Shown here piece by piece: positions 17,968 to 37,755 of a stretch of 64,000 bases of DNA. Numbering within the stretch: position 1 is the first letter of the stretch; each line of letters begins with the position of its first letter. Position numbers and translations under genes: made by a program. The notes below the pieces were generated by a model. The model did no database searches. It was not told the origin of the DNA and saw only the letters and a list, made by a program, of their open reading frames with translations. This DNA comes from an uncultured Chloroflexia bacterium (GTDB taxonomy: Bacteria > Chloroflexota > Limnocylindria > Limnocylindrales > CSP1-4): NCBI GenBank assembly GCA_963749705.1, contig CAVVNQ010000008.1:256001-320000 (forward strand). The letters run 5' to 3'.

Positions 17968-17977
17968 GGGGGCGGCG

Positions 17978-18955: not shown

Positions 18956-18970
18956 CACAATGCGGGCGCA

Positions 18971-19522: not shown

Positions 19523-19536
19523 GCCGCGCGCGGTTG

Positions 19537-20187: not shown

Positions 20188-20488
20188 GGCAGGCTCGATC
20201 AATCGCGCCGGGCCGGGTGTCCGTTGCACTCAGCGGTGGCGAGGTGCATGCTCTGAATGCATCCGGCCCCGTGCCGATCCCCGTCCAGCGGTGAACCGTG
20301 CCCCCTTCCAGGAACCAGCGGCTCGAAGCCTTGCCCAACGTCCTCCGCAACCAGACGGTTCCTAACCGGCTCGGCGGGCGCGGCCCCGATGCCCGGTCGG
20401 TGGCGCGAGTGTCGATTCCGGTCCGCAGGGTCATCGCCATCGCCATCGGGCTGATCGCGGTCGTCGCCCTCATCGTCGGGCGCGCGTG

Positions 20489-20746
20489 ATGGCGAAGACG
20501 GGATCGGCTTCAACACCGGCACGGCGCTACCGCCCGCGCCGGCTCGAGCTCCCCGATGGCGAGCTCCTCGTGCTCCGCGGAGACGGCGTGATCGAGCATC
20601 GGGATGCGGCTGGAGCTGTTGCGCAGAGCTGGAGCCCAGAGGATCCTGAGTGGCCGCAGCGAGCCCTCCGGTTCGGGATCCACGCCGCCCCGCGGACGGT
20701 CAAGCCCAGTGGCCGCGACGCCTTCGACACGAAGCCGCCCGGGTAG
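20489..20746 (+). CDS. Small hypothetical protein
   Basis: 85-aa ORF with protein-like composition (LELPDGELLVLRGDG...WSPEDPEW). Confidence 0.5.
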   Translation: MAKTGSASTPARRYRPRRLELPDGELLVLRGDGVIEHRDAAGAVAQSWSPEDPEWPQRALRFGIHAAPRTVKPSGRDAFDTKPPG

Positions 20747-20901
20747 GATGCGGCCGCTTCGTCTCGTTACCCATTGCCTTGGAGCCGTCCGTTCCCCGGC
20801 TCGCGGTGGACGACGGCAGGAGACGGCACCTCGCGGGGCAGGAAGGCCAGAATGAGGCGATGGGCTTCCCTCCTCGCCACCAACTGACCGAGGGCGTCTG
20901 A

Positions 20902-21342
20902 ATGAACGTCTCGCCGTGGTGTCACGCGAGATTCCCCGCGGCCGGAGTCCTCGCTCTCGTCCTCGCCGGGTGCGGGACCCTGTCGAGTTCACCGTCGCCT
21001 GACCCTTCGTCGGCGTGTGCATCAGCCGGATGCTCGGTGGCGATCCGAACGGAGCCGGCTCCTGGCGGCCCGAATTCCATCTGCGAAGCCGCATTCATTG
21101 GCGGCGTCCTCGCTGCCGACCCCACCGATGGACTGGGCCTGCGGGGGGAAACGCACGGAGTGGCCAGCGTGGTATGGCCCTTCGGCTATGCCGCCCGCCG
21201 CGAATCCAGCGGGATCGTGCTCCTGGATCGCTCGGGTCAAGTGGTGGCCCGAGAGGGTGACACCGTCGCGATGGTGGGTGCCTGGGGGGACGACGGGATG
21301 GCATACCCGTGCGATCAGCCGGACCTGAAGGTCGCTCGCTGA
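20902..21342 (+). CDS. Hypothetical lipoprotein
   Basis: GAGGG RBS; lipobox LAGC; VVWPFGY...VVAREGDTV. Confidence 0.7.
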   Translation: MNVSPWCHARFPAAGVLALVLAGCGTLSSSPSPDPSSACASAGCSVAIRTEPAPGGPNSICEAAFIGGVLAADPTDGLGLRGETHGVASVVWPFGYAARRESSGIVLLDRSGQVVAREGDTVAMVGAWGDDGMAYPCDQPDLKVAR

Positions 21343-21431
21343 CGCGGGCGACGGCGGACCTCGCTCAGGGGGCCTTTCCTGCTAGCCCAGGACGACGACG
21401 CTCCTTCGGCCTCGATCCGCACAGAAGAGTT

Positions 21432-21459
21432 CAGACGTCATTGGGCGAAGACATTGCGA
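21432..21459 (+). repeat. Degenerate copy of the 28-bp array site
   Basis: CAGACGTCATT-GGGCGA-AGACATTGCGA: arms match the consensus 9/11 and 10/11, spacer unrelated. Confidence 0.6.
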
Positions 21460-21641
21460 GTTGGGCGCGCCGTCGCGCCCACGGTTGGAGCCGCCCTGGC
21501 CCTCGACCCGTGTGAGTTCCGTCGCCTCTACCTGAGCCCGACCGGGGGTTTGCGTAAAGTAGGGTCCCGCTGGTCGCACCACCGAGGCTCTTGACTCAGA
21601 GACTCTGAACGCCGGTGATGGTCAGGAAGGGGGGACGGGAC

Positions 21642-22445
21642 GTGGGAACGAGGCTTCCGGGGCTGGCCAGCCTCGCGACGGCTGCCACCTCCGTGTTCAT
21701 CGCACTGGTTGCCGGCTGCTCGACCGGCGTGGCCAGCCCGACCATCCCCGGCAAGGAGCCCTACACGCAGGAGCCGCCGACGCCGACCCTCAGCGTCCCC
21801 AGCCCGACCATCCCCGGCAAGGAGCCCTACACGCAGGAGCCGCCGACCCCGACCTTGAGCGTGCTCGCAACGGTGGCTCCGTCGGGCCATGGCCGGCCGT
21901 ACACCGCAGCCGACATGGCGGCCCTTCTGGGCGCCGCGGCCGCGAGACCATCGGGCTTCGCGAGCGAGCTCAACACGCCGCAGCTCCTGGACACCATGGC
22001 CGGCGTGCTCGCCGACGACGTCTACTCCTATGACGGTACGCCCTACCAGCGAGTCGTCATCACGGCTCGCTGCGATGGGCCGCCCGTCGAACAATGCAAC
22101 GTGTTCCTTGAAGGCATACCGGCGTTCACCGACGATCCCCATGCCCAGGACGGGTACACCTGGACGGTCGACCTGGCAACCGAACGGGTCACCATGACCA
22201 GCTATGGGCTGAGCGGATATCCCGCCGCCCTGACCGCGGGCCTCGACGCGCTGGCGCGTTCCCTCGATGTCGACAGTCGGTACAGGGACCGATACCTCGT
22301 CCAGGTCGCATGGGAGCTGGCGCCCCCAGACGACGCCTACGTGCTGCGCTACAGCAACGGCCTCGGGGAGGGCGACCTGGTGTTCTGGGTCACGATCGAT
22401 CGGACCGCCCGGCGCATCGTATCGATCAGGGAGGCGCCCGGCTGA
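21642..22445 (+). CDS. Hypothetical lipoprotein with an internal 22-aa duplication
   Basis: Lipobox VAGC; SPTIPGKEPYTQEPPTPTLSV twice; start could also be 21615/21618. Confidence 0.7.
   Translation: MGTRLPGLASLATAATSVFIALVAGCSTGVASPTIPGKEPYTQEPPTPTLSVPSPTIPGKEPYTQEPPTPTLSVLATVAPSGHGRPYTAADMAALLGAAAARPSGFASELNTPQLLDTMAGVLADDVYSYDGTPYQRVVITARCDGPPVEQCNVFLEGIPAFTDDPHAQDGYTWTVDLATERVTMTSYGLSGYPAALTAGLDALARSLDVDSRYRDRYLVQVAWELAPPDDAYVLRYSNGLGEGDLVFWVTIDRTARRIVSIREAPG
21733..21862 (+). repeat. 66-bp tandem duplication
   Basis: CCAGCCCGACCATCCCCGGCAAGGAGCCCTACACGCAGGAGCCGCCGAC at 21733 and 21799. Confidence 0.95.
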
Positions 22446-22556
22446 CGCCTCGATCAGTTCTGCGCTGCCGAGCGCTGGCCAGGGTGGGAGCCGGCCAAGC
22501 GCACCCAGAACGCCAAGCACAGGCGGGCGTCGTCCAACCGGAAGCCGCCGCGAGGA

Positions 22557-23030
22557 TCAGCCGGATGCACCCGCGGTCGGCGCGCCGAGTCCGGGCGGTG
22601 GGGTCGCCACGAAGCACCGAGCCGGGAGGCCTGCCTGGGCGACGCGTAGCTGCTCAGAGGCCGTCGCGAGTTCCTCATCTGTGATCCCGTAAGTGCTGGC
22701 ATAGGCGGGGAGCAGCGCGTTGGCGGCCTGTCCGATGTGAAGGTAGGCCCGGAGCAGCGCCTGCCAGGTGCCGCCCTGCCTGACGTCGCTCGACGTGATC
22801 GTCTGGAGGACGTCATGCCCCTGCTTCGCGAGCGCGGCCGCCTCGCTGGCGAGCTGCCGTGCGGATGCCTTGTCCCCGCTGGCGTCCTTCGCGGCCGCCC
22901 CCTCGACAAGCGTCTTGGCTGCGGAGAGACTCCCCGCCACCCCGCACGTCGTGGCATCAGCCGCCGCCCCGAAAGCGGAACAGGCGGCTACAAGCGAATA
23001 CGCCAGGACGATGGTCAGGGCGATCCTCAT
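22557..23030 (-). CDS. Hypothetical lipoprotein
   Basis: MRIALTIVLAYSLVAAC lipobox; helical body. Confidence 0.7.
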   Translation of the reverse strand: MRIALTIVLAYSLVAACSAFGAAADATTCGVAGSLSAAKTLVEGAAAKDASGDKASARQLASEAAALAKQGHDVLQTITSSDVRQGGTWQALLRAYLHIGQAANALLPAYASTYGITDEELATASEQLRVAQAGLPARCFVATPPPGLGAPTAGASG

Positions 23031-23275
23031 GGCGTGACAATCGCGGAAGCTGTTGGCCGGGTCAAGAGTCCGGGGTCAGTCGGTCGAGATCCTGTTATGA
23101 GGAAACCCCCACCAGACGCGTTGCCCCGCAAACCCCCTCAGGTGCGCCTACGTTCACGCCGATTCCCCACGCCGATTGCATTGGCGAACGCATCGCGATG
23201 GGGACGCCCAGTTGCGTCGCCAGCCCGGACTTCCGACGCATGTGACGGCATCGCTTCGAGACTACAGTGACGTCG

Positions 23276-23443
23276 ATGCGACGACTTCTCGTTCGACTTG
23301 AACAGGCTGACGACCTCACTCGGGTCGGACTTCTACTGGTGTTACTGGTCCTGCTGGTCGTGGTGCTCGCACTTTCCAGCGGCCCGCCGCCAATCCTTGG
23401 TGGCGTCAGCACCGGGGTTGATCTGCCGACGCCTCAACGCTAA
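23276..23443 (+). CDS. 55-aa single-TM protein (not in the ORF track)
   Basis: MRRLLVRLEQADDLTRVGLLLVLLVLLVVVLALSSGPPPILGGVSTGVDLPTPQR*; ends 11 bp before array site 1. Confidence 0.5.
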   Translation: MRRLLVRLEQADDLTRVGLLLVLLVLLVVVLALSSGPPPILGGVSTGVDLPTPQR

Positions 23444-23454
23444 GCCTCAGCGGA

Positions 23455-23482
23455 CGGGTGACATTGCCGACACACACTGCGA
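23455..23482 (+). repeat. 28-bp array site 1
   Basis: CGGGTGACATT-GCCGAC-ACACACTGCGA. Confidence 0.9.
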
Positions 23483-23499
23483 CGACGCGGTGGCGTACC

Positions 23500-24108
23500 T
23501 CACCCTGGTGGCCATGACGGGAGGGGGAGGTACCCGTCGCGGCTGACCTCGTCGACTGTAATGCTGAACAGCGCCCGATCAGGGTCGTTCACGTAATGAC
23601 GGTCATCGCCATTCCCGATCATGAGACCGACCCCTCGCTGATCGAGGACCATCCAGAGGCGCCGCACCCGCTCACCGTCGTCATGCCAGCGCAGCGCCTC
23701 GACAACGCAGTGATCCGGCAGGCCGCCGTTGTATGACGGGCAGTCGTCGGCGACGACCGGGCCGCACGGGCTATCCATTGCGGCGGGCGGGAACGAGTCC
23801 TGGCACCCATCGAGCGACAGGACTCGCGGTCGAACGATGAACCCCGCCGCCTCGGCGATCCCTTTCGCGACTGGGTAGCCGTCGAGGGGATCGGCGTCGA
23901 CGAAATAGCTTCGAGTGGCCCGGGCTTTGATCAGGAACCCGCCGTCGATCACCTCGGTTTCGACCGGCTCCCACGACGCAGGCACCGCAAGCGCATCCAG
24001 CGTCGGCAGCAGGCGGTCGCCGTCCGAGGGCCACAGCGCGCAGGTGGCCGGGACCACGACGACGAGCGCCAGCAAGGCGGCGAGCGACGAGATGACTCGG
24101 CGGCCCAT
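23500..24108 (-). CDS. Secreted or membrane-anchored hypothetical protein
   Basis: N-terminal hydrophobic segment; Cys-containing body; GAGG upstream. Confidence 0.6.
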   Translation of the reverse strand: MGRRVISSLAALLALVVVVPATCALWPSDGDRLLPTLDALAVPASWEPVETEVIDGGFLIKARATRSYFVDADPLDGYPVAKGIAEAAGFIVRPRVLSLDGCQDSFPPAAMDSPCGPVVADDCPSYNGGLPDHCVVEALRWHDDGERVRRLWMVLDQRGVGLMIGNGDDRHYVNDPDRALFSITVDEVSRDGYLPLPSWPPG

Positions 24109-24204
24109 CACCTCAAGTATGGAATACCGGCACTCCGGCGACCATGTGACCGGGTGACAAGCAGGGACAGGCGGCCCGGCGGGTCGTTCCGTCGTCCGCT
24201 CTCG

Positions 24205-24942
24205 TCAGACGTTGATCCGATCGCTGTCGAAGGCGATGCGATCGGCGACGCCGACGGGCCAGACCTCGAGGAGGCTCTCCGCGCGCAACGCCTGGACCAG
24301 CATCGCCGAGCCGCCGACGCAGGTGAAGTCGAGGTCAGGGTCCGAGGCCACGAACCAGGCCCGGTCCGCCGGCCAGATGAGGCTTGGCGGCTCGGCTGAA
24401 CGGGTGCCCTCGTCAGATGACCAGCCCAGGTCACGGGCCAGCGTCAGCGGACCTCGGCGGATGAGGTAGCTGCGCTGCTCAAGGTCGAGCACTTCGGGCC
24501 CGGCCCATGCCTCGACCGGCCAGCCGTAGCCGTCCCATACCCCGATGAAACAGTCGCCGGGTGTCGTCGTGTGGGCTGTGAGCACCCCGAACAGGGCCTC
24601 GAGACCTTGCGGGTCGAGGCCGTCCCTGTCGGGCGGTGCCGCGAAGGGCGGTGCCCCGTGGGCCGTCGTCACCGGGGCAGCCACCGACTCCCACTGCGCC
24701 AGCGGGTGCATCGTGCGCTCCGACCAGGCAGCGACGGTTTCCCATCGAACGCGCGCGTCCTTCCACCGCGATCCCCACGCCGGGTGGAGGATGCGGGCAT
24801 AGGCCTCGAAGACGACCGGGACGAGCGACCCGACCACGTACTCGCCAAACGGCCGCCGGTGCTCTGCGATCCAGCCGGCGTCCGCTGCCGGCATCCTGGG
24901 GCGCCGGTCGGGTTTCTGGCGCGTTCGGAGGTGGAACCTCAT
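24205..24942 (-). CDS. Hypothetical protein of an actinobacterial-type family
   Basis: VPVVFEAYARILHP...CFIGVWDGYG...PSLIWPADRAWFVASDPDLDFTCVGGS. Confidence 0.7.
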   Translation of the reverse strand: MRFHLRTRQKPDRRPRMPAADAGWIAEHRRPFGEYVVGSLVPVVFEAYARILHPAWGSRWKDARVRWETVAAWSERTMHPLAQWESVAAPVTTAHGAPPFAAPPDRDGLDPQGLEALFGVLTAHTTTPGDCFIGVWDGYGWPVEAWAGPEVLDLEQRSYLIRRGPLTLARDLGWSSDEGTRSAEPPSLIWPADRAWFVASDPDLDFTCVGGSAMLVQALRAESLLEVWPVGVADRIAFDSDRINV

Positions 24943-25101
24943 CGGGCAATTGTGCCGCGCCTTCAGACCCGCACGCTTCCTGTGTCCCAACGCAATCCGC
25001 ACGTCCTGCCGGCCTCAGCCGATCCTGAATCGCCATTGAGCCCTTGACGGCGGGTGCGGCCGGGGAGACGCTGTGTGGGCGTCCAATTGCTGGGGGGCGA
25101 C

Positions 25102-25497
25102 ATGCGCCGCTCATGGTTGCTGCTCGTGCCGACGCTGATCGCAGGCTGCGCGAACGCCGCGCCCATGGACATCTCCTGCCAGCCATACGGCCACAGCCCT
25201 GCGCCGATCACCTTCTCCTTCACACCGGGTCCGGTCACGGCGTCGGTGGCCGAGCAGACCGCCGTGGCGCTGTTCGAGTCCTGCGGCTCGCTGGACCCGA
25301 CCCTCACGATCACCGACCTCACCTCCACCGTCCGCGCCGCAGCCGGGGCTCCCGGTCCGAACGCCGGACAGGACGTGTGGCTGGTGAAGGTGGATGCGAC
25401 AGTGGCCGACTCAGTGTCTGGAGCAACCTACCCGTCGCACTTCCTGATCGAGGTGAACCAATCGACGGGCTTCCCAACCATCGTCGGCTACGGCTGA
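25102..25497 (+). CDS. Hypothetical lipoprotein
   Basis: MRRSWLLLVPTLIAGC lipobox; PepSY-like VWLV...IEVNQSTG. Confidence 0.7.
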   Translation: MRRSWLLLVPTLIAGCANAAPMDISCQPYGHSPAPITFSFTPGPVTASVAEQTAVALFESCGSLDPTLTITDLTSTVRAAAGAPGPNAGQDVWLVKVDATVADSVSGATYPSHFLIEVNQSTGFPTIVGYG

Positions 25498-25548
25498 GAG
25501 CACCTAGGTTGAAACATCGCTTCGCCACAACTGCGTCGTGTCGCTGAC

Positions 25549-25959
25549 ATGTGGACGCAGGTTCGGCACAGCCTGCTCGCTGGCGGCGTCGCCCTGCTCG
25601 TCGCTGCGTGCGCAGGACCGAGATTCAGCCCGCCGCCGGACGCGGCCGGTCCCGACGTCGTCTTGCGCGCCTATCTGCAAGCCCTGGTGGCCGGCGACTG
25701 CTCGGCTGGTCAGGTTCTCGGCACTTCGACGTTCGGTTTCGGCGGCGGTGAGCTTTGCGGACATACCACGGTGAGCAGCTTCAGCATCGATGGCCTGCCG
25801 GCGACGCCGAACGGCTCTGAGGTCGTCTTCTCCACGACCCTCGAGACCAGCGGTACTGCCGACGGCACCGTCCGGCCTGGCGGAATGACCTGGTTCTACG
25901 ACCTCAAGCGTCAGCCGACCGGTGCGTGGCGAATTGCAGGGGGTGGCTCCGGTCCCTGA
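25549..25959 (+). CDS. Hypothetical lipoprotein (NTF2-like/DUF4829-like)
   Basis: Lipobox VAAC; PDVVLRAYLQAL...WFYDLKRQPTGAWRIAGGGSGP. Confidence 0.65.
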   Translation: MWTQVRHSLLAGGVALLVAACAGPRFSPPPDAAGPDVVLRAYLQALVAGDCSAGQVLGTSTFGFGGGELCGHTTVSSFSIDGLPATPNGSEVVFSTTLETSGTADGTVRPGGMTWFYDLKRQPTGAWRIAGGGSGP

Positions 25960-25975
25960 TCGGCCTGGTCGGGCC

Positions 25976-26003
25976 GTGATGACAATCCCGACACACATGG
26001 CGA
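25976..26003 (+). repeat. 28-bp array site 2
   Basis: GTGATGACAAT-CCCGAC-ACACATGGCGA. Confidence 0.9.
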
Positions 26004-26070
26004 AGCGACGGCGACGTTCCAGGGGCCGAGGGCGCGGTCACAGCTCCCGGCCAGGTGCCAGACTGTGGCG

Positions 26071-26436
26071 ATGGACAGCCCACGCCCCATGCGCCACCTG
26101 CAGACCGCCGACCTGGCCTGGTTCGACCTCGACCCGGCTTGGCTTGTGACCCTCGCGGCTGCGAATGAGGACCGCCTGCCTGGGCTCGCCGAGCGCCTCG
26201 CCACTTGCCACCGAGCCGCCTGGCAGTGCGATTCGTACCTCGTGCTCCGGGTAGTCTTTCCGGGGCCAGGGATGGATACGGTTGTGCTCGACGACGGGGA
26301 CGCGGAAGAGTTCGCGATCGACCTAGACCGGAGCGGCGATCCCGTCGGGGTTGAGTTCCTCCATCGGCTGCCCTGCCGGTCGGACGGCGCATCCGGACGC
26401 GTCCGCGACCTGATCGGGCGACTCCGCAGCAGGTGA
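26071..26436 (+). CDS. Hypothetical protein with a DUF2283-like C-terminal motif
   Basis: FAIDLDRSGDPVGVEFL; stop TGA is supplied by array site 3. Confidence 0.55.
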   Translation: MDSPRPMRHLQTADLAWFDLDPAWLVTLAAANEDRLPGLAERLATCHRAAWQCDSYLVLRVVFPGPGMDTVVLDDGDAEEFAIDLDRSGDPVGVEFLHRLPCRSDGASGRVRDLIGRLRSR

Positions 26437-26457
26437 CATTCCAGGCACACATTGCGC
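26430..26457 (+). repeat. 28-bp array site 3
   Basis: CAGGTGACATT-CCAGGC-ACACATTGCGC. Confidence 0.9.
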
Positions 26458-26483
26458 ACCTCGCGTATCGCGCTGGCCCCCTG

Positions 26484-26894
26484 ATGTTCTGCCGACGCCG
26501 ACGTCCGACCTTTCTCCATCCAACGCGCGATCTCAGGGCGATCCTCGGGGCCGCGATGGCGAGTGCCGGATCGGATGCGACCGACAGCCTCGACCTCCTC
26601 ACGGCTGCCGTCGGCTCGGGTGCCCTCGCGGACGCGATGCGGCGACTTGGGGTCGACCCGGCAGTGGTTGTGGCCTCGGCCGAGCGGGCGCGGCTCACTC
26701 GCCAGCCGAGCCCGGGCCTGACCGACGATGCAAGAAGAATCGTGGAGACGGTGTCGCATCTGGCGCTCGAAGGTCGCCGTGATCCGTCGGGTCCTGACCT
26801 CCTTGTCGCGCTCGCAACAACGGACACCCCGGCGCGGGCCGTGCTGAACTCCTTGGGTATCGACGAGACACGGCTACGAACGCTCAGCGGTTGA
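26484..26894 (+). CDS. Stand-alone Clp N-terminal-domain-like protein
   Basis: Two repeats of the Clp_N pattern (DLLTAA...MRRLGVD; LTDDARRIV...DLLVAL...ARAVLNSLGID); stop TGA is supplied by site 4. Confidence 0.6.
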   Translation: MFCRRRRPTFLHPTRDLRAILGAAMASAGSDATDSLDLLTAAVGSGALADAMRRLGVDPAVVVASAERARLTRQPSPGLTDDARRIVETVSHLALEGRRDPSGPDLLVALATTDTPARAVLNSLGIDETRLRTLSG

Positions 26895-26915
26895 CGTTCC
26901 GCGCACACATTGCGA
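26888..26915 (+). repeat. 28-bp array site 4
   Basis: CGGTTGACGTT-CCGCGC-ACACATTGCGA. Confidence 0.9.
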
Positions 26916-26920
26916 GGCGA

Positions 26921-27388
26921 CTATCCTCTGGACTGCCCGCCCAGGCCGACAGTTCGGATGGAGTAGACGACCCAGACTCCGGTGGAGATGGCGGTGATCG
27001 CGAACGCGACGCGGATCCCGGGGAATGGAACAACCAGGGCGAGGAGAGGATCCAGCAACGCGACAACCGCATAGGCGATCACCGGCGCCAGGAACGTCGA
27101 TCCGATCACCACCCGGTCGCCATATGTCGACTGCAGCCGCAGCCGCTCCAGTTGATCGGTCGGCTGAGGTTGTCCCTGCTGTCGGCCCGCAGGTGACTGC
27201 TGGTACCTGGCCACGAACCGTGACCATGAGTCGGCGGGTGTGACACGAGGCGGGATGCGCCCCGCCTCGACCAGCGCCTGCTCGAATCGGTGGAACAAGA
27301 CGTTGCGGATTGCGACGCCCAGCCCGACCACCTCGATGGCAACCAGGAACACGCCGATCATGTAGCTAAATCCGTCCGTCAGCTCCAT
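26921..27388 (-). CDS. Hypothetical membrane protein
   Basis: TAAGG RBS; about 3 TM segments; lies between sites 4 and 5. Confidence 0.6.
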   Translation of the reverse strand: MELTDGFSYMIGVFLVAIEVVGLGVAIRNVLFHRFEQALVEAGRIPPRVTPADSWSRFVARYQQSPAGRQQGQPQPTDQLERLRLQSTYGDRVVIGSTFLAPVIAYAVVALLDPLLALVVPFPGIRVAFAITAISTGVWVVYSIRTVGLGGQSRG

Positions 27389-27480
27389 GACCTTAGTATT
27401 CCGCGCGGTCCGACCTCTTGGACCTGGCACGCTCGCTGGCGCGAAGATTGGTTCGCCAAGTCCGGTCCGAGATCCCCAAG

Positions 27481-27508
27481 CAGATGACATTCGCGGCACA
27501 CATTGCGA
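27481..27508 (+). repeat. 28-bp array site 5
   Basis: CAGATGACATT-CGCGGC-ACACATTGCGA. Confidence 0.9.
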
Positions 27509-27690
27509 TGACGACGTGACAGGTCTCGGTGCCGCAACTGCGGGTGACGTGCGTGGCGGACCGGCCCGCGATCCTGCCGAACGGCCCGTTGCGTCGTGCT
27601 CTGCCCCGCACTCATGATCGGAGTCACGGCACATGAGCGGGGATGTCATGAAGCGACGGACCCTCTGTCCGATGGCGATAGCCGAGTAGC

Positions 27691-27882
27691 GTGAGACCCG
27701 CTGTGAGATCGCTCAACAGCCGCTCGGTCAGTGCCCGGTGGGACGTGCCACCGGACGCGGTCGCGGCCGCGATCAGGCGCGCGATCGCCGACGAGCGCTA
27801 CGAGGACGCGGGGCATCCCACCGGGTCGCTGTGGCTCGTGCCGCAGGTCGAGGCCGTCCTCGAGCGAGTCGGCACCCCGTGA
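27691..27882 (+). CDS. Small hypothetical ORF or gene fragment
   Basis: 63 aa; C-terminal half is protein-like; no clear RBS. Confidence 0.3.
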   Translation: MRPAVRSLNSRSVSARWDVPPDAVAAAIRRAIADERYEDAGHPTGSLWLVPQVEAVLERVGTP

Positions 27883-28037
27883 AGGTGTGACCTCCAGACG
27901 CTCGCGAACGACGTCGGAAGGTGCTGAACGTCAGGCGTCATTCGCTCGTGCTATGCGAGATTGCCCGTGCGTACTATCGGACCGTGAGCCTCCAGGACAA
28001 TGTGGGGCGGGTGCGATCTGATCGAGGAGGAGGAGCG

Positions 28038-28337
28038 ATGGTGCGCCGGAAGGAGACTGGTGCCGAGTACATCGAGCGCCACGCGCTCGTGATCCCGCTG
28101 ATCCTCGGCGACATGATCGAGCACCTCGGAGCCGCAACCCAAGCGTGGACCCAAGCCGTCGAGGCCGCCCGCAGCGGTGACCTCGACCGAGCCCTGAAGG
28201 AAGTCGTAGATGTCGAGATCGGCGTCGACGTCCCACTCCGGGTCGGCCGCGCCGAGATCCGATCGATGATGGAACGCGCCGGCAACCTCCTCGACTCGGA
28301 ACTCCCGGACGACGACGGGGATCTCCAGACCGGATGA
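28038..28337 (+). CDS. Hypothetical protein (99 aa)
   Basis: Strong GAGGAGGAG RBS; stop TGA is supplied by site 6. Confidence 0.7.
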   Translation: MVRRKETGAEYIERHALVIPLILGDMIEHLGAATQAWTQAVEAARSGDLDRALKEVVDVEIGVDVPLRVGRAEIRSMMERAGNLLDSELPDDDGDLQTG

Positions 28338-28358
28338 CATTCCCGCGACACATTGCGA
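28331..28358 (+). repeat. 28-bp array site 6
   Basis: CGGATGACATT-CCCGCG-ACACATTGCGA. Confidence 0.9.
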
Positions 28359-28432
28359 TGGGACTGGCACCCTCTGCCGTGGCGCGGGCCACACACTTAG
28401 CGGGGCACCATCCGAACTGCTAGGGTGCGAAC

Positions 28433-28840
28433 GTGGTCAGCAAGCGCCTCCTCGAGCTTGTCACGGATCCCGCTGAACGGTCGTACCTCTCGGGGGAGGA
28501 CGGCTACTGGGCCGATATGGTCGTCGAAGAGCTGTCGTTCCTCGAGGCCCGCGGGTTCCGGATCGAGGCGATCCGTTTCCATCAGGAGGGCGACTCGATC
28601 ACCTACCGCGGACCAGAGGGTTCCGTCGAGTTCGGGTTCTTCCCGGACGCGGGTGACATCTCGGCGCGGGCCTCGCTGCGCACCTCTGCACTGAGGTACG
28701 ACGGCGACCTTGACGTTCTCGCTCGTCAGCTGCATCCCGACATGCCAACGCCGCCCAAGCTCCCGCTCCATCCGGAGACGATCTCCCGCAACGTGCAGTT
28801 CTGGGCGGATCTGCTCCACTCGGTGTCTGACACCGTGTAG
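28433..28840 (+). CDS. Hypothetical protein
   Basis: 135-aa ORF with globular composition. Confidence 0.6.
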   Translation: MVSKRLLELVTDPAERSYLSGEDGYWADMVVEELSFLEARGFRIEAIRFHQEGDSITYRGPEGSVEFGFFPDAGDISARASLRTSALRYDGDLDVLARQLHPDMPTPPKLPLHPETISRNVQFWADLLHSVSDTV

Positions 28841-28847
28841 GGGCACT

Positions 28848-29141
28848 GTGGGTGGTCGATTGACCGTCACTTACGTGCCGCCGGACGGCGACCTCGCCCT
28901 GTGTTTCCGGCCCGAGGGCGCTGGTCACGATGTCGACTTGCCGCTGTATCTCCGGGCCTGGCATAGCGACCTGCCGGACATCCTCGAGTACGGCGTCGCG
29001 GAGAGCGCGGCTAACGCCCTTGAGAATGCGCGCGCGTTTGCCAGCCGGGCTGATGCCCTTCGGGACCTCCTCGCAGGTGATCCGCGCGAGGTCCAGCGTG
29101 CCCTCGCGCTCCGGTGGTGGGATGTCCCTCTGCCCAGGTGA
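28848..29141 (+). CDS. Hypothetical protein or 3' gene fragment
   Basis: 97 aa from GTG 28848; ends 13 bp before site 7. Confidence 0.45.
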   Translation: MGGRLTVTYVPPDGDLALCFRPEGAGHDVDLPLYLRAWHSDLPDILEYGVAESAANALENARAFASRADALRDLLAGDPREVQRALALRWWDVPLPR

Positions 29142-29154
29142 TCACCACCGGCAG

Positions 29155-29182
29155 CCGATGACCTTTCCGACACAGATTGCGA
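29155..29182 (+). repeat. 28-bp array site 7
   Basis: CCGATGACCTT-TCCGAC-ACAGATTGCGA. Confidence 0.85.
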
Positions 29183-29355
29183 CGCGTGCGACCTGCCGCC
29201 CGGTACGTCTCCACCGCAACACCGTTCAAGGGCATCGGCGGGAGGGCCACAGACGATGAGCGAGGCTGAAGTCAGCGCCCGGCTGGCGACCCTCCCGTGT
29301 TCCTGGGTGAGTCCTGCTCCGCGACGACGTAGGGTTGACCCGCGCCGGCACCCCC

Positions 29356-29988
29356 TCAGCCTGGTTGGTCGTCAATCAGGCGGGGGAACACAACGTCGAG
29401 CGGGTCCATCCCCAAGGCCTTCCCTTTGTCTCTCGCCCATTTGAGCGCGGCCGACACGTCCTCCTCCGAAAGCGTTTGCTCAACCGGACTCCATGCCCGT
29501 ACGAACGTGATGACCCGGATCAGATCCGCCGCGTCGGCAATGACGCTTTCGAGGTCTGGCCATACGGTCGTTGGCTCCGCCAGTACCGCAATCTCCCACT
29601 CATCGGTGTCCATCGACTTGAGCGCGCTCTTCGCCGAATGGGCCTGGTCGTACATTCTCGCGGCATGGGCAATCGTCTCCGCAGCAGCCCTGCTGATGGA
29701 CGGAGGCAGGTCATCAACGTGCCGGGCTGCCGGGAGGATCAGACTCCAGGCGAAGATCGGGCCTCCCCACTCTTCCCGAAGCAGATCCATCGCTGCAGCT
29801 TCCGCCAGCACGCCGTTCGCATCTGCGCCAATGGCGATCATCCGCGCTGATGGGTCGGCGGCTAGTAGCTCCCGCAGGTTGCGGCGCTCTGTCGCTGGAT
29901 CCCGTGCCCCCAGCAGCGCAAGCAGCGGCTGGGCCCGGGCCAGAGAGAGCAGTTGGACCAACTGCCGCTCGATCACGAGTCCTGCCAC
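29356..29988 (-). CDS. Hypothetical protein
   Basis: 210-aa helical ORF; GAGG upstream; atypical codon usage. Confidence 0.55.
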   Translation of the reverse strand: MAGLVIERQLVQLLSLARAQPLLALLGARDPATERRNLRELLAADPSARMIAIGADANGVLAEAAAMDLLREEWGGPIFAWSLILPAARHVDDLPPSISRAAAETIAHAARMYDQAHSAKSALKSMDTDEWEIAVLAEPTTVWPDLESVIADAADLIRVITFVRAWSPVEQTLSEEDVSAALKWARDKGKALGMDPLDVVFPRLIDDQPG

Positions 29989-30235
29989 CTCGTCATGCCC
30001 CTTCCCCGTCTCCGATTGGCCGGTTCGTGCTTTCGCATCGACACTTTGGGCGAGTTCTACGACGAGGCCTGGCTCATGGCCTCTTGATCACGGCGTGTGT
30101 AGCGGCCCGTCTAGCTGTGGGGCGATTGATCTCCCGAAACTGACCTTCGTGTCATGGGAGCTGTCACGGTCGAGTCCAAACGCCGACCAGTCGACCGGCG
30201 AGTTCTACGACAACGACCGGCTACTCGCCCTCTGA

Positions 30236-30640
30236 TCAGCGGCCGGCCTTCGCCGCCAAGATCAACAGGATTGTGCCTATCGCGAGAGCGCCCACCCAAA
30301 CGATCACGAGCGTCTTGAAGGCAGGCATTCTGAAGGCGGCGCGCCGTCGCTCGACAGCCAGCGGGCCTTCACCTCGGCGAGATTGATACACCCAGGCTGC
30401 CACGACGGCTGCGTTCAGCGTGAGGAGGATCACGATCCACGTTTGATCGCCGAGAATGCCGCCCAGGACGGGCATGGCGAGAACCACGACGACAAGCCCG
30501 GCAGCCAGCACGGCGAGGCGAGGTGCTTGGCGTCGAACGGCTCCGCTTCCTCCACCCAGATATATCGCGCCGACGGTAAACGCCATCGTTCCGATCACGA
30601 TGAACGCGCCGAACAGCACGAGGGCGGGGCTGGACATCAC
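30236..30640 (-). CDS. Four-TM membrane protein
   Basis: Four hydrophobic segments; GAGG RBS. Confidence 0.65.
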   Translation of the reverse strand: MMSSPALVLFGAFIVIGTMAFTVGAIYLGGGSGAVRRQAPRLAVLAAGLVVVVLAMPVLGGILGDQTWIVILLTLNAAVVAAWVYQSRRGEGPLAVERRRAAFRMPAFKTLVIVWVGALAIGTILLILAAKAGR

Positions 30641-30730
30641 GCCTCAAGCATCGGCTCACCATGGCCGAACCGCAAGTTGGTCAAGGCGCAGGAGTCGTGA
30701 ATACCCACTGCAGCCGTTCTTGGCCTGCGG

Positions 30731-31237
30731 TCAGCCGATGCTTCTGGCCGTGCCGGTTCGGTCGAGGCAGAGGAACCGTCCGCCCAGGCTGCCATCCGGG
30801 GTGACGCCGGTGAAGTCGTGGGCTTTGGGGATCCGCAGATGCGTCTCGATCCCGCCTCGGGCGTTGCTGAGTGTGATCTCGATCCAGTCTCCATCCACGC
30901 GGCCCCTCGCCGCGACCTGCCAGCAGGCGGGGTCGTCGCCCGACGGCCGCCCGGCGTATCCCCAGGTCGGCGTTTCATCGCCCGCGAGCAGCAGGTCGCC
31001 GATGGCCGCGACGCTGCTCGCGATGAATGACGACACCTGGACCTCGCCCGGTCGCCCGTCGAGCGTGTAGAAGTAACCGGCGCCGGGAGCGCCAGACCGC
31101 TCGGCGGTGATGACGCCGGCCAGTGTCACGGTGTAGACGGCGACGGGCTTGCGCTTCAGCTCGCCGACCCCGAGCAAGATCCACGCCAGCACCACCCCGA
31201 TGACGCCGACGATGACCCACTTGCTCATTGCGACCAT
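30731..31237 (-). CDS. Membrane-anchored hypothetical protein
   Basis: N-terminal TM (WVIVGVIGVVLAWILLGV) followed by a beta-rich domain. Confidence 0.6.
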   Translation of the reverse strand: MVAMSKWVIVGVIGVVLAWILLGVGELKRKPVAVYTVTLAGVITAERSGAPGAGYFYTLDGRPGEVQVSSFIASSVAAIGDLLLAGDETPTWGYAGRPSGDDPACWQVAARGRVDGDWIEITLSNARGGIETHLRIPKAHDFTGVTPDGSLGGRFLCLDRTGTARSIG

Positions 31238-31317
31238 CGGACGGGACTCACCCGTTCACATTGATCGCGGTGGCGCGCACCTGCAACTGGTTCGAATGTC
31301 CTCGGTGTGCTCGGGAC

Positions 31318-31345
31318 CACGTTACATTCCCGACACACATTGCGA
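31318..31345 (+). repeat. 28-bp array site 8
   Basis: CACGTTACATT-CCCGAC-ACACATTGCGA. Confidence 0.9.
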
Positions 31346-31497
31346 GATGGCGCGCCGTGCGCCATGGTGGGTCCGCTTCGTGCGCCATGGGAGCCAGCCG
31401 GACGCACGAGGGAACGTTTGGGTCGGCGTTGGCGTTCGATCGTCACACGTTCGCCATCCCGCCGTCACAGCGAGCACATTGACGGAGTCGGGAGGAG

Positions 31498-32388
31498 ATG
31501 AAGGTGGGGACGCTCCGGTTGCTGGCAGGGGTGGTGGCTGTCGCCTTCGTGGTGTCGGCATGCGCCGATACCTCATCCCCCACCGCCTCACCCGCTCCCT
31601 CGATGCAGCAGGCCTCGCCCACGCCGACGGCCATGGAAGCGACGCCGAGTTCCGTTGCCCCGACCCCGACCCCGGTCCCTCCGCTGGCGATCGACGATCT
31701 CCCCCGTGTCGAGCTCGCGGACGTCGACGCGACCGCCGTCTGCGACCCCGAGCCAAGCCAGGCGAACATCGACGCCGGCGAGTCCACGGTCCACTGTTCC
31801 GACGGGCTCGGCCTGGCGCTCGCGGTCATTCGCACGGTGACGCAGGATCCGGCGATCCGTCTCTATCTTCACCTCCCGACCTGCGCGTCGGTGCCGTGTT
31901 CGGAGGATGAGCTGAGCACGGCGGAGGTCACCATCTGGACGGAATCGCTGGCCTTCAAGGTCCAGTTCGACTCGCGTCTCCATTCCGTGCAACAGCCGGT
32001 GGTCTCGAGCAACGACGCCTGGCCCGCGCCGGGTAGCGAGCCCGAGCCGCCAGTGAGCCGTCCATCGATCCAGGGCGCACCGCGCGCGGTGGCCGACCGC
32101 GATCCCTACCCGTTCTGCGGCCGCGCAGAGATTGGTGAACCGTCCTCCGTTCTGGGCTGCTTTCGGGACGCCCTGCTCGCTGGGAACAAGGCGGAGATGA
32201 TCAATCGCGTGTATGGAACCGAGGGCGGCGAGATCCTCTGGATCTACCGCTATGACGGTGCCGGCCGCCTCCGTCGCTTCCAGCAGGACGGCACCAACTG
32301 GGCGATGAACGAAGGCGCGATGATCCTCGGGATCGCACCGCAGACATGGGACTTCGACCCTTGGTGGGGCACCGAGCGGCGGCTCTGA
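31498..32388 (+). CDS. Hypothetical lipoprotein
   Basis: GGAGGAG RBS; lipobox VSAC; Pro/Thr linker; paired cysteines. Confidence 0.75.
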   Translation: MKVGTLRLLAGVVAVAFVVSACADTSSPTASPAPSMQQASPTPTAMEATPSSVAPTPTPVPPLAIDDLPRVELADVDATAVCDPEPSQANIDAGESTVHCSDGLGLALAVIRTVTQDPAIRLYLHLPTCASVPCSEDELSTAEVTIWTESLAFKVQFDSRLHSVQQPVVSSNDAWPAPGSEPEPPVSRPSIQGAPRAVADRDPYPFCGRAEIGEPSSVLGCFRDALLAGNKAEMINRVYGTEGGEILWIYRYDGAGRLRRFQQDGTNWAMNEGAMILGIAPQTWDFDPWWGTERRL

Positions 32389-32518
32389 ACCCGCCGATCA
32401 AGACGCGACATGTCGCGCGTCGCGCCTTGCGAACGCAGCGCGGGATGATCACAATTCCGCTCCCTGAGCGTCTCGATCGCCACCGGGGCGGCCACATCCA
32501 GGCCCGAAGGAGCGGAGC

Positions 32519-33184
32519 GTGAGGCGTTCGATCGCGATCCTGCTCATCTCGATCGCGGCGACCGGCTGCAGTGGCGCCGGGGCAGCGTCACGGGTACCGA
32601 AATCCGAGCCACCCCCCACTCCCACGATGCCGGCCACGCCTGTCGCTCCACCCACGGCGGTGCCGTCGACCGCCGCAGTCGCTTCGGAGGCGCCGATCCC
32701 GTCCATGCCGCCATTCACGGGCAACCCGACACTGCACGTCGGGAGCGGTCCGGCGGTCGAGCGAACCGGTGATGGTGGCTGCACCGACGTGTTCTATCTC
32801 GCAGTCCAGGTCGGCGGATCAGACTGCGGTCCGAGCGCCTTCGGCCTCAACGCGCCGCCACAATCGGTCCAACGTGGTGAGCTGCTCACGATCACCGCAC
32901 CGTCCGGCTGGTCGTTCTCCGGGGTGGCCGTCGGTGTTCCGGAGGCGTGGTCGATGACGATTGCCCCCGTCAGCGCGCTCGCGGACATCGGCGAGAACGA
33001 CCAGGCCGAGATCCCTGCCGAACTTGGGACGGTCCTGGGCAGCGGCCACGGGCCGGACGAGATGGCAACCGCGGCGGCGCCGACATCACCCGGCGAATAC
33101 CTCCTCCAGTTCCGGGACGAGCTCGCCGGGGACGGCTGGACGCTCGATGGCGCCACGTTCTTCTGGCGGCTCTCGATCAAGTAG
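32519..33184 (+). CDS. Hypothetical lipoprotein
   Basis: GGAG RBS; lipobox ATGC; Pro-rich linker; ends 16 bp before site 9. Confidence 0.7.
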   Translation: MRRSIAILLISIAATGCSGAGAASRVPKSEPPPTPTMPATPVAPPTAVPSTAAVASEAPIPSMPPFTGNPTLHVGSGPAVERTGDGGCTDVFYLAVQVGGSDCGPSAFGLNAPPQSVQRGELLTITAPSGWSFSGVAVGVPEAWSMTIAPVSALADIGENDQAEIPAELGTVLGSGHGPDEMATAAAPTSPGEYLLQFRDELAGDGWTLDGATFFWRLSIK

Positions 33185-33200
33185 GGATCGGAATGGGCAG

Positions 33201-33228
33201 CGGGTGACATTCGCGACATGCATTGCGA
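33201..33228 (+). repeat. 28-bp array site 9
   Basis: CGGGTGACATT-CGCGAC-ATGCATTGCGA. Confidence 0.9.
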
Positions 33229-33289
33229 GGGACGTACCCGCCACTGGCGCCGTTGACCAACCAGAACGGACCGTGGAAGGCTATGGACG

Positions 33290-33673
33290 ATGCATCAGCT
33301 ACGCGTGCCGGCGGGCTCGGAGGTGTTCCTCGGGGCGCCCAGGGTGCCCATGGAGCCCGAGATCGTTACTGCCCTCGGCGGGCTCGTGGACAGCACACCG
33401 GAGGTGATCGAAGCCCATCTGCCGCAGGCGTTTGTGCCCGGCACCATGTCGAGCCCGATGCAGGTGCTGGTGATCGTCACCGAGGAATCGGACAGGCACG
33501 TGGCACTCGCGAAGCTTGGCACCGGTCTCGGGCGCATCCTGCCTGACGGCCGCCCCATCGATGTCTGGCCGTTGAGCCCAGGCGACCAACTCCTGCCGGC
33601 GGTGCGGGGAGCGAACTGTCGTATCGGGAAACGCTCTGGACGACGTGGGATTCTGGGGCGCCTGCGTCGATAG
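33290..33673 (+). CDS. SseB C-terminal-domain-like protein
   Basis: VPAGSEVFLGAP...ALGGLVDSTPEVIEAHL...VLVI pattern. Confidence 0.5.
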   Translation: MHQLRVPAGSEVFLGAPRVPMEPEIVTALGGLVDSTPEVIEAHLPQAFVPGTMSSPMQVLVIVTEESDRHVALAKLGTGLGRILPDGRPIDVWPLSPGDQLLPAVRGANCRIGKRSGRRGILGRLRR

Positions 33674-33985
33674 CGGGCCAGAAATGAGAGTGACGATGAG
33701 CGGCAACGGCCGTCGTGATTGGCGCCGATCGGGTGATCACGACGGATTCAGGCTTGTCGGGGCTTCCGGTCTCGGTCGACGACCTCGCTGCCGGCGGATA
33801 GCCTGCCCGGATCTGGCAGGCTCGACGCGGCCGGCGGGCCCTCGGTCAAGCACCCGCGCCCGTCTGGCCGCCGATGAGCGCTGGGCCAACGCTTGGCAGC
33901 CGAGCGCGAGGTTGGCGCAACTCGCTCGCGTTTGGTCTGGTCCTCACTTGTCCGGGGACGCGCGACCCACCATGCTCGCTGGCAC

Positions 33986-34735
33986 ATGAACCGTCGCCGG
34001 GCCGCTGTTGGGTCACGCTGCCAGTTGCTGTTGGCCGGTGTCGTGCTGGCCGTGGCGTCATGCACGTCCGTGCCACAGGCGACCATGGAAGCCGCCGCCT
34101 CGACGTCCGCGGGTGCATCGACCGCTCCTGCCCCATCGGCTCCCGCCGCCACCGATGCCGCCGCCACGCCGAGCCCGACCGAGATCGCGTCGTCCGCACC
34201 GCTGCCGAGTCCGGGCGGAACCTGTTCGGCGAGCCAGCTCGTGCCGGGCACGGCCACGAACGGGTACACGTTCAGCGCCGTCAACTACCGGCACGTGCAC
34301 CTCGATCAGCCGGTTCGCAATGCCGGCGGCGGGTGCGTGCTGGCTGTGCCGGCAATGATCGGGGTCGCGTCCGCGACCGGGCTCGTCCAGGCCGTCCAGG
34401 TCAACAACATCGGCTACGACGTCTGCGTCGACGACGCCTGCCAGTTCGTCAGTCCGCCGTCATACGAGATCCGGGCCGGGCAGTCGCTGGGGATCGCCCT
34501 TGACGCCTCGTGGTGGGTCGGCGGCTACGACGAGAATGGAGCGCCGATCGACACGCCGCCTCCGTGCCCCGGCGCGGTCAACGATGTGACCCGCGTCGAG
34601 ATCCCGCTCGCGTCCGGCGCCCTCACGATCGATCTCGAGACGGCCGTCCGCGTGCCCGAGTCAAGCGTCCCCTGGCAGGAGGTCTGCGCCGGCCGGGACA
34701 GCATCTCGCTCTCGATCACGACCGAGAGTCCGTGA
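33986..34735 (+). CDS. Hypothetical lipoprotein (DUF4232-like fold possible)
   Basis: Lipobox VASC; Ala/Pro/Ser linker; CSASQL...VRNAGGGC. Confidence 0.65.
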   Translation: MNRRRAAVGSRCQLLLAGVVLAVASCTSVPQATMEAAASTSAGASTAPAPSAPAATDAAATPSPTEIASSAPLPSPGGTCSASQLVPGTATNGYTFSAVNYRHVHLDQPVRNAGGGCVLAVPAMIGVASATGLVQAVQVNNIGYDVCVDDACQFVSPPSYEIRAGQSLGIALDASWWVGGYDENGAPIDTPPPCPGAVNDVTRVEIPLASGALTIDLETAVRVPESSVPWQEVCAGRDSISLSITTESP

Positions 34736-36245: not shown

Positions 36246-36259
36246 ATGGGTGGGCTGCG

Positions 36260-37713: not shown

Positions 37714-37755
37714 GCCGCGCGCTGGGGCCTGTCCGCGAGTCGGGAGCGCTGGTAC

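Follow-up and report, generated by a model that had tools for sequence, protein, structure and literature searches.

What kind of genetic element sets the same short sequence, always on the same strand, between one small gene and the next along a bacterial chromosome? The question is raised by a 64,000-nt stretch of DNA (hereafter the window) from an uncultured Chloroflexia bacterium, which corresponds to positions 256001-320000 of contig C8 in a metagenome-assembled genome (MAG) of 22 contigs and 3,595,848 bases (88% complete, ~71.5% GC); we denote this source genome G000, and other genomes, contigs and loci are likewise given by G, C and L handles. An earlier, sequence-only reading of the window had proposed an array of ten co-oriented 28-bp sites, separating small unrelated genes as the recombination sites of an integron would. 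To our knowledge, integrons are the only well-understood general platform for the capture of single genes. Their hallmark is one integrase together with folded attC sites, each of which is an imperfect inverted repeat of 55-140 bp that forms a hairpin with R''/L'' and L'/R' boxes (RYYYAAC ... GTTRRRY).

We argue here that the locus is probably a chromosomal, integron-like cassette platform with a new type of site and a recombinase that acts in trans, and we infer that a dedicated protein cuts and joins DNA at the sites. The argument is built on the anatomy and uniqueness of the sites, the variability of the array, the sharing of cassettes between genomes, junctions at the site edges, distinct head sites, the spread of related arrays through a bacterial family, and the absence of integron parts.

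An array confined to one locus

The proposed sites are confirmed as nine strong copies and one degenerate copy, all on the + strand at 21432-33228 of the window. At up to three mismatches the consensus of the sequence-only reading matches at 21432, 23455, 26430, 26888, 27481, 28331, 29155, 31318 and 33201, always on the + strand (nine matches, and none in 100 dinucleotide-preserving shuffles); the copy at 25976, which departs from that consensus at four positions, is recovered by a shorter pattern (two mismatches) and by a position weight matrix (PWM; 39.4 bits). When the whole of G000 is scanned with the PWM, the nine good copies score 36.8-46.7 bits, followed by 22.4 bits (on C11) and 18.1 bits (the 21432 copy). 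The claim that the 64 kb hold no further copies can thus be extended to the 3.6-Mb genome, where the PWM finds nothing comparable, and the motif therefore exists only in the C8 array. The eight spacings quoted between neighbouring sites are arithmetically correct, and the sites do stand at gene boundaries: they lie 0-50 bp past many stop codons, and several genes use the TGA of the site as their stop. Gene calls were made with a custom codon-score model trained on G000, which misses small genes, so that some of the distances given here are inflated.

Two extra decayed copies were found inside the array (~32406-32434 and ~33871-33894), as was a decayed head site (~20752-20779; see below), and the array is therefore slightly longer than first reported. 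Its arrangement is not the artefact of a single assembly, since independent short contigs from a soil run cross several of the sites with 0-3 differences (25623-26595, 27805-29307, 30098-31640 and 33130-33818). The soil contigs used here and below come from four runs of one study (X1-X4), represent mixed communities, and were compared with positions 19000-36000 of the window; stretches of the array that X2-X4 leave uncovered were not counted as evidence. The GC content falls from ~72-75% to 65-69% across 21-34 kb, codon-usage scores fall from ~0.5 to 0.1-0.3 per codon at 19.5-37.7 kb, and no Rfam match at E<=1 is present at 18000-38000.

Repeated short sequences between genes may also be selfish, as in REP/RAYT systems (repetitive extragenic palindromes and their transposase), which consist of short palindromic repeats scattered in intergenic DNA and a Y1 transposase. 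An origin of the array from repeats of this kind, or from others resembling miniature inverted-repeat transposable elements, spreading into the intergenic DNA of a variable island, would agree with elements that are short, intergenic and lineage-specific. The motif is, however, not palindromic and never scattered, all strong copies in G000 standing in one array on one strand; G000 has no Y1 (RAYT-type, PF01797) transposase; and whole genes move together with the repeat, as described below. We regard a selfish repeat as very unlikely.

Anatomy of the site

The site of the window, which we call type-1, reads RGRTGACATT, five variable G/C-rich bases, and then CACACATTGCGA, and is asymmetric. Among 47 sites from several genomes, positions 5-11 (TGACATT) and 17-28 (CACACATTGCGA) are 83-100% conserved, positions 12-16 are variable and G/C-rich, and positions 1-4 carry a weak CRGR; conservation was not found beyond the 28-mer. 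The first description of the site, as two 11-bp arms around a variable 6-bp core, is thus approximately right as to the variable core, with the conserved blocks at 5-11 and 17-28 and the variable part at 12-16. These two blocks are not inverted repeats of each other, and ACATT is found in direct orientation in both arms.

That attC-type hairpins and integron integrases are absent is supported by folding, by a search for arm partners and by an integrase model. No reverse-complement partner of either arm lies within 150 bp at the 47 sites; single-strand folds of nine sites with 45-nt flanks have z values of -1.39 to +1.53 relative to shuffles; and inspection of the aligned sites by eye revealed no RYYYAAC/GTTRRRY boxes. 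An attC-like hairpin was rejected because a complementary partner is lacking and the sites fold like shuffled sequences. The integron-integrase model (TIGR02249) found no match at E<=1e-40 in any of 70 genomes of the genus, a search that had no positive control, as 14 control genomes also gave none; the four tyrosine recombinases of G000 reach 59-115 bits, far below the cut-off of 265. The same results bear on whether the array is the remnant of an integron, that is, an integrase-less attC cluster (CALIN) with unusually short attC sites. The layout matches such a remnant, with co-oriented sites after promoterless-looking small open reading frames (ORFs) of unknown function, but the missing arm complements, the lack of stable folds and of R/L boxes, and the integrase searches all speak against it and make it the most improbable of the explanations considered here.

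Movement of gene modules between genomes

If the sites delimit mobile gene modules, as was proposed for the window, the content between the same flanks should differ between relatives, and it differs wholly. In the closest relative, G218, both flanks are 82-97% identical to those of G000; between them G000 carries 13.1 kb (20777-33895), and G218 carries ~1.5 kb, consisting of a head site, one gene, one type-1 site, another gene, and a one-armed remnant. Module content is likewise not syntenic in other genomes, where modules are shuffled and found at other chromosomal loci. Among the 70 genus genomes, clustered same-strand type-1 sites are found in G258 (12 sites), G260, G201 and G250, and single ones in G218 and G225; type-1 loci are chromosomally different between genomes. 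The G258 array holds eight of the G000 cassettes, in another order and one of them inverted, and further G000 cassettes recur in G201, G250, G260, G214, G207 and G051.

Sites that follow the same gene in different genomes show that their sequences agree through the site and diverge immediately past it. Two of the multi-ORF units in G000 hold decayed sites where other genomes have intact ones, which explains why one to four genes are found per spacing.

A family of sister sites

A scan for copies that preserve only the left arm revealed a sister site, GTGACATT-SSCGNAC-NCTSGC(GGAC), which is present in 39 of the 70 genus genomes. Allowing up to two mismatches, 77 of 201 genomes of the family (31 of its 49 genera) have it, the reversed control pattern giving one match each in 13 genomes; with up to one mismatch it is found in 71 of 258 family genomes and in none of 42 genomes of the sister family, with no control matches (the genomes counted include the unpublished G082). 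The largest sister arrays comprise 20 sites (G216) and 16 sites (G195), spaced at 0.28-1.1 kb, and in every array all sites lie on one strand. The left block does not vary, and the 9-nt right part is for the most part particular to an array or lineage, with types GCTGGCGGA, GCTGACTGA, GCTCACAGA and ACTTTGCGA besides the window's ACATTGCGA, and some arrays mix types. Just beyond the head end of the G216 array (L098, G216:C6) there are an IS4/IS5-type transposase gene (20030-20578) and an FtsK/SpoIIIE-family gene (862 aa, 23014-25602).

Type-1 is a rare sub-type of this site family, GTGACATT-N5-AC-NCT-N4-GA, whose arrays are found throughout one family of soil Chloroflexia. It occurs in 4 of the 201 family genomes, counting G000, the other three having single weak matches. 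In a collection of named genomes every record with multiple type-1 sites is a MAG of an uncultured Chloroflexia bacterium, and among 32 stretches from a metagenome scan a full-scoring site is found in L061 only.

The relation of sites to genes was surveyed at 140 sites. The upstream gene is co-oriented with the site in 97 of 135 cases, and in 10 cases it terminates at the TGA of the site; the median distance from stop to site is 72 bp, compared with 190 bp from site to the next start. Downstream genes are anti-oriented at 44 of 137 sites over all arrays (3 of 9 in the window).

The exchange point and the ends of arrays

Where does the exchange between modules take place? Soil contigs diverge from the window directly after 21459 and directly after 23482, and another joins 27508 to 32446; positions 21459, 23482 and 27508 are the final bases of three sites. 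One soil contig has a different cassette directly after 23482, another has a different upstream cassette up to 27483, and the foreign sequences match cassette flanks of the G258 and G201 arrays. In all five pairs of sites with just the upstream cassette in common, the 9-nt right parts are identical or one base apart; in the single pair with just the downstream cassette in common, they belong to different types and disagree at 5 of 9 bases. A cassette at G000 C18:139311 is also preceded by a right part different from that of its G258 homologue. Breakpoints had been expected to coincide with the sites, and they do, although not in the central 6 bp but at the 3' edge of the 28-mer. The three refuting conditions named in the sequence-only reading (a scattered motif, gene content syntenic between relatives, breakpoints away from the sites) all turned out in favour of cassettes. 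Because the right part tracks the upstream gene, and because the soil-contig junctions fall at site ends, the exchange point appears to lie at the 3' edge of the site or immediately beside it, as judged from six informative pairs.

Arrays also have distinct beginnings. A head site, in which GAGGT[GC]AC is joined directly to a right part, is present at the 5' end of seven arrays in the same orientation as the cassette sites. The pattern for head sites gave 13 hits in 767,405 bases, of which seven are at array heads and six were treated as chance; a pattern built from the right arm of the sister type alone matched G/C-rich sequence too often by chance, and only hits anchored by GAGGT[GC]AC were kept. 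The head sites of G159 and G245 lie 12-24 nt past the stop codon of an IMPDH-like gene; in other genomes a head site follows closely on the gene for an MpaB-family oxygenase or for an S26 signal peptidase. Since in G000 neither a head sequence nor an array follows the IMPDH-like gene, we conclude that the head arrives with the array. A diverged head (..ATCTCGTCG + right part) is found at the same relative place in G218 and G250 and, decayed, in G000, where it occupies 20752-20779 on the + strand, 6 nt past the stop codon (20744-20746) of a conserved flank gene (20486-20746). Only a remnant of its right part is left (..CGTCTCGTTAC-CCATTGCCT); the intact counterpart in the closest relative is at L019:7262-7283 (..GATCTCGTCG-CACATTGCGA), and homology to that relative stops at ~20777 of the window. 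At their far ends arrays have one-armed remnants that keep the left block only. No half-site was found in G000 at the empty locus corresponding to that of the G250 array.

A second small cassette locus of G000 lies at C18:136362-139327. It has a head-like site (GAGGTCAC + GCCGGCGGA) at 139311 on the minus strand, followed by the homologue of a G258 cassette and by a paralogue of the window ORF at 24205-25002; no intact cassette sites were found there.

These features suggest how such arrays may be built. A cassette comprises a leader of ~60-390 bp, one gene (several where inner sites have decayed), and then a 25-28-bp asymmetric site past the stop codon. The array starts at a distinct head site after the stop codon of a resident gene, in the role that attI has in integrons, and site-specific recombination would insert, lose and reorder cassettes. 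Exchange at or beside the 3' edge of the site would leave the whole site with the upstream gene.

Candidate recombinases

That no recombinase is visible in the window had been stated before, and the window's whole contig is indeed without a match to PF00589. G000 has four tyrosine recombinases. Two of them score near the XerC and XerD cut-offs and are encoded on C2 (XerD-like, 177778-178785; XerC-like, 136181-137326), which is also the contig of the candidate dif site described below. Searches of G000 (88% complete) with PF00239, PF01797, PF01548, PF03432, PF08751 and PF02486 gave no matches, and thus no serine recombinase, Y1 transposase, IS110-type transposase or relaxase/Rep member was found among the families tried. 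PF00589 has matches in all 70 genus genomes, and several of those that bear arrays, G250 and G233 among them, have only two.

Several candidates were considered and rejected. A 3.7-kb element of G000 at C6:172997-176675 (L084:7997-11675) encodes an AAA_16/AbiEi_4-like protein and a convergent pair of Xer-like tyrosine recombinases that share 45-50% identity. The element is 98.75% identical to a copy in G258, compared with 87-89% for the flanks, and it occurs also in G218, G203, G229 and G228; its right end carries a tandem GTGTGTACG repeat, and the G258 copy lies 5.7 kb from array-associated DNA. It looks like a mobile element that is spreading recently. The distribution of its recombinase pair does not follow that of the sites, the pair being present in only three of seven type-1 genomes (G000, G258 and G218) and also in three without type-1 sites, and an apparent half-site at the end of the element was dismissed, since it lies within coding sequence and varies between copies. 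No orthologue of the integrases that adjoin the G260 array is present in G000. A phage or plasmid origin was also set aside, the viral contigs offering no convincing case.

Two scans of viral contigs yielded 12 single matches, of which only that in L127, and perhaps that in L123, resembles a true sister-type site. L127 (8816 bp, 66% GC) has a near-perfect sister-type site at 96-125, at one contig end, and a phage-type integrase at the other (7527-8711); a terminase-like gene is also present. L127 may be an integrative element that uses a sister-type site. Its integrase has no orthologue in four array-rich genomes of the genus.

Linkage to a tyrosine recombinase, which the sequence-only reading had suggested looking for, did not emerge, as none is consistently linked to the arrays. 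With no array-linked recombinase, we take the enzyme to act in trans; it could be of Xer type, encoded on elements that were not binned with the genomes, or of a kind not recognised as a recombinase.

An enzyme in trans could also be simply that of the host. In Xer-dependent modules, such as the dif modules of Acinetobacter plasmids or integrative mobile elements exploiting Xer (IMEX), host XerC and XerD would bind the two arms and move the modules, and no dedicated recombinase would be required. Of the tyrosine recombinases, only the XerC- and XerD-like ones are common to the genus (PF00589 in 70 of 70 genomes), and the overall length of the site is dif-like; in G243, moreover, one sister-type site lies 273 bp from dif. 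The analogy to Xer/dif sites drawn in the sequence-only reading nevertheless fails in several respects. A candidate dif of the lineage, CTTCCGATAA-GGTGAG-TTATGTC, occurs once in G000 (C2:295806-295830) and has an 11-6-11 structure with an ATAA/TTAT inner palindrome; as 51 of the 70 genus genomes have it, nearly always in a single copy (G218 and G239 give two matches), we take it to be the Xer site of the lineage. Local alignment of the array sites to it is no better than that of shuffled sequences (type-1, p = 0.78; sister type, p = 0.24), and the inner palindrome is absent from them. Their arms are direct and not inverted, their right part varies by lineage whereas dif is conserved, and the whole site moves with one cassette instead of being split at the centre. 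The arrays also lie away from dif: the two are on separate contigs in G000 (dif on C2, array on C8) and 200 kb apart in G260. With the real dif elsewhere and without significant similarity to the sites, a dif or IMEX array was rejected, and a system worked by XerC and XerD in this manner is unlikely.

The sister-type site near dif in G243 (L116, G243:C5; positions 9467 and ~9760) is the sole site seen near dif; it adjoins an extracytoplasmic-function (ECF) sigma gene and a partner gene of ~470 aa.

In the Acinetobacter dif-module and IMEX systems, modules are, as here, bounded by 28-bp sites, lack a recombinase of their own and are shuffled between replicons; the sites of the plasmid modules resemble the host dif and alternate in orientation, and IMEX sites lie at dif. 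The sites described here are unrelated to the host dif, all direct, chromosomal, and away from dif.

Regulatory genes near the arrays

ECF sigma factors are the only neighbours found to recur beside the arrays. Of 27 array loci, four have an ECF sigma gene and its partner within 7 kb, and such genes also adjoin the G258 and G201 arrays. In L110, L111, L113, L116 and L012/L017, which represent several genera, an ECF sigma gene paired with a gene for a 320-500-aa protein without a Pfam family lies a few kb from the arrays. The proximity could be due to chance, ECF sigmas being common, or to a regulatory link.

ECF-sigma promoters have conserved -35 and -10 blocks 16-17 bp apart and stand upstream of co-oriented genes. 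Could the sites, then, be regulatory elements (an ECF-sigma-type promoter, an operator or a transcription stop) of an accessory envelope regulon, the shuffling being a by-product of homologous or illegitimate recombination between the repeats? The motif is asymmetric, ~28 bp long and strand-specific in the manner of an ECF promoter, its length fits the -35/-10 spacing, and many cassette products resemble lipoproteins or membrane proteins, besides the nearby sigma and partner genes. Against this, however, stand the anti-oriented downstream genes counted above and the position of the sites, closer to the stop codon before them than to the start codon after them; what would be the spacer is conserved, and no -10-like element was seen by eye at the right distance. 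Head sites and one-armed end remnants resemble products of recombination, junctions fall at the exact edge of the site both in other genomes and in soil contigs, and the motif is found only inside arrays. We consider a regulatory element rather unlikely.

The cassettes of the window

The cassettes of the array illustrate these features one by one. Cassette 0 (ORF 20902-21342, + strand) encodes a protein with a lipoprotein-like N-terminus (..LAGC); its module occurs twice in another array (L017:1-569 and L017:2081-2636, compared with 20875-21459 of the window), with 90-91% identity ending at the site. It is closed by the degenerate type-1 site CAGACGTCATTGGGCGAAGACATTGCGA (21432-21459; like all sites listed here, on the + strand), which scores 25 bits with the PWM of 47 sites, and whose intact counterpart follows the same cassette at L017:2081. 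Cassette 1 has two ORFs (21615-22445, + strand; 22557-23030, - strand), both with lipoprotein-like N-termini and without a Pfam family, and ends at the site at 23455-23482 (41.7 bits); soil contigs have a site immediately after the first ORF, without the second (22402 joined to 23458). The multi-ORF cassette 2 (23500-24111 and 24205-25002, - strand; 25054-25497 and 25549-25959, + strand; without a Pfam family) has parts that are separate cassettes in other arrays (L013:3901-4386, L013:13298-13896 and G214:C15:1474-1885), and is followed by the site GTGATGACAATCCCGACACACATGGCGA at 25976-26003 (39.4 bits).

Cassette 3 (ORF 26065-26436, + strand) uses the TGA of the next site (26430-26457; 41.8 bits) as its stop codon, and has a homologous cassette at L013:7687-8120. 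Cassette 4, in frame at 26433-26894, shows a weak Clp_N-like C-terminus and is closed by the site at 26888-26915 (36.8 bits). Cassette 5 (26921-27388, - strand) is membrane-protein-like and opposite in orientation to the sites; the site after it (27481-27508) is a perfect consensus match (46.7 bits). The second of the two ORFs of cassette 6 (27691-27882 and 27921-28337, + strand) stops at the TGA of the site at 28331-28358 (43.5 bits), a region that the independent soil contig at 27805-29307 covers without differences. Cassette 7 (28433-28840 and 28860-29141, + strand) lacks a Pfam family and precedes the site at 29155-29182 (three mismatches, 40.0 bits); two cassette proteins, one of them from cassette 7, were looked up in the Atlas, where the nearest clusters are unnamed hypothetical proteins. 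Cassette 8 has three ORFs on the - strand (29356-29988, 30236-30640 and 30731-31237), two of them membrane-protein-like, and ends at the site at 31318-31345 (44.9 bits).

Cassettes 9a (31498-32388, + strand) and 9b (32519-33184, + strand), both with lipoprotein-like N-termini, are separated by a decayed site (..GACATGTCGCGCGTCGCGCCTTGCGA) at 32406-32434. It aligns with an intact site at L013:2134 that precedes the same downstream cassette, and the soil joint of 27508 to 32446 is concordant. Cassette 9b is found in three other arrays (L013:2175-2959, L017:5025-5823 and L018:8872-9658; 84-88% identity) and is followed by the site at 33201-33228 (41.0 bits). Cassette 10 (33290-33673, + strand), with a weak SseB_C-like match, stands at other loci in two genus genomes (G218:C7:93809-94264 and G214:C15:1888-2135). 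After it comes a decayed site at 33871-33894 with the left arm only (CCGATGAGCGCT...), downstream of which the sequence is common to the closest relative; the relative's counterpart is GTGCCATTGCGCGCAC, followed directly by the shared GGCAGCCGAGCG. Beyond the last intact site, the lipoprotein-like ORF at 33893-34735 (+ strand) is cassette-like in another genome (L013:5066-5622 and L013:7005-7224), and older cassettes with decayed sites therefore probably continue to ~37.7 kb.

As a whole, the cargo is like that of integron cassettes: 18 of 20 ORFs scanned in the array region (20902-33184) have no Pfam match at E<=0.01, and the remaining two have weak partial matches only (FG-GAP_2 and Clp_N). 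Lipoprotein-type N-termini are found in at least eight array ORFs, and three ORFs are membrane-protein-like. Just upstream of the array flank are two adjacent carbamoyltransferase paralogues (OTCace_N + OTCace; 17014-18955), and after them a gene for an HhH-GPD base-excision glycosylase (19537-20187).

Discussion

In the integron-like platform that we favour, the likeness to integrons is one of organisation. In both, small genes of mostly unknown function are each followed by a co-oriented site that goes with the gene before it, the array opens with a first site of a distinct kind, and cassettes are shared and reordered between genomes. The differences lie in the parts: the sites described here are of a duplex type, 25-28 bp long and without a hairpin or R/L boxes, and no IntI-type integrase was found; the head abuts the 3' end of a housekeeping gene and not an integrase gene; ~30% of the genes are opposite in orientation; and the right part of the site is lineage-specific.

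Other known systems share single features with the arrays. The sfx sites of shufflons, recombined by the tyrosine recombinase Rci, are like these sites short and asymmetric, with one conserved arm beside the crossover region, but they are inverted and serve to invert gene segments rather than to capture whole genes, and no Rci-like gene is linked to the arrays. Cis-mobilizable elements (CIME-type) and tycheposon islands, which accrete in tandem at an att site, have cargo modules that lack an integrase and are separated by direct att-like repeats, as here. Their repeats, however, are copied from the 3' end of the target, a tRNA gene or another one, and their modules span several kb; the present repeat matches no gene of G000, and most modules consist of one gene, at spacings of 0.45-2.5 kb.

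Several points weigh against a dedicated recombination platform. The sites have no dyad symmetry, which is unusual for the core sites of simple tyrosine or serine recombinases (as the asymmetric sfx sites show, a tyrosine recombinase does not necessarily require it). When 218 proteins from the flanks of 27 array loci were clustered, no family was found at more than four loci, and the Xer-like pair of the C6 element does not track type-1 sites. Pairs of ECF sigma and putative anti-sigma genes near five to six arrays keep a regulatory reading alive, and ~28% of the sites follow a gene of the opposite orientation. The soil contigs show alternative arrangements and not events of excision, and just six pairs of sites are informative for the exchange point. 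Finally, all of the genomes are MAGs of 50-98% completeness, in whose bins plasmids or phages may be missing, so that absences are weak evidence.

On a wider scale, it is quite possible, if somewhat short of probable, that this family of soil Chloroflexia owns a gene-capture system parallel to integrons, in which asymmetric duplex sites, head sites, lineage-specific crossover sequences that keep the array types apart, and a trans-acting recombinase (a re-used Xer-type enzyme or a member of a family not yet recognised) work together. In the literature on such cassette sites, as far as it was accessible to us in part, our search returned only work on integrons and on Acinetobacter dif modules, and the novelty of the site type rests on that search. 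The proposal is directly testable, given a 28-bp site and, in G000, only four tyrosine recombinases as candidate enzymes; with a site so short and well defined, the partner enzyme could become a new recombination tool.

If the reading is true, the arrays are a second capture platform with a different site chemistry, and cassette-based gene capture has evolved more than once. IntegronFinder and Pfam-based callers of mobile elements would miss such a platform, spread as it is through a family of abundant soil bacteria, and the family would hold a large hidden pool of mobile genes, encoding mostly lipoprotein-like, membrane and unknown proteins.

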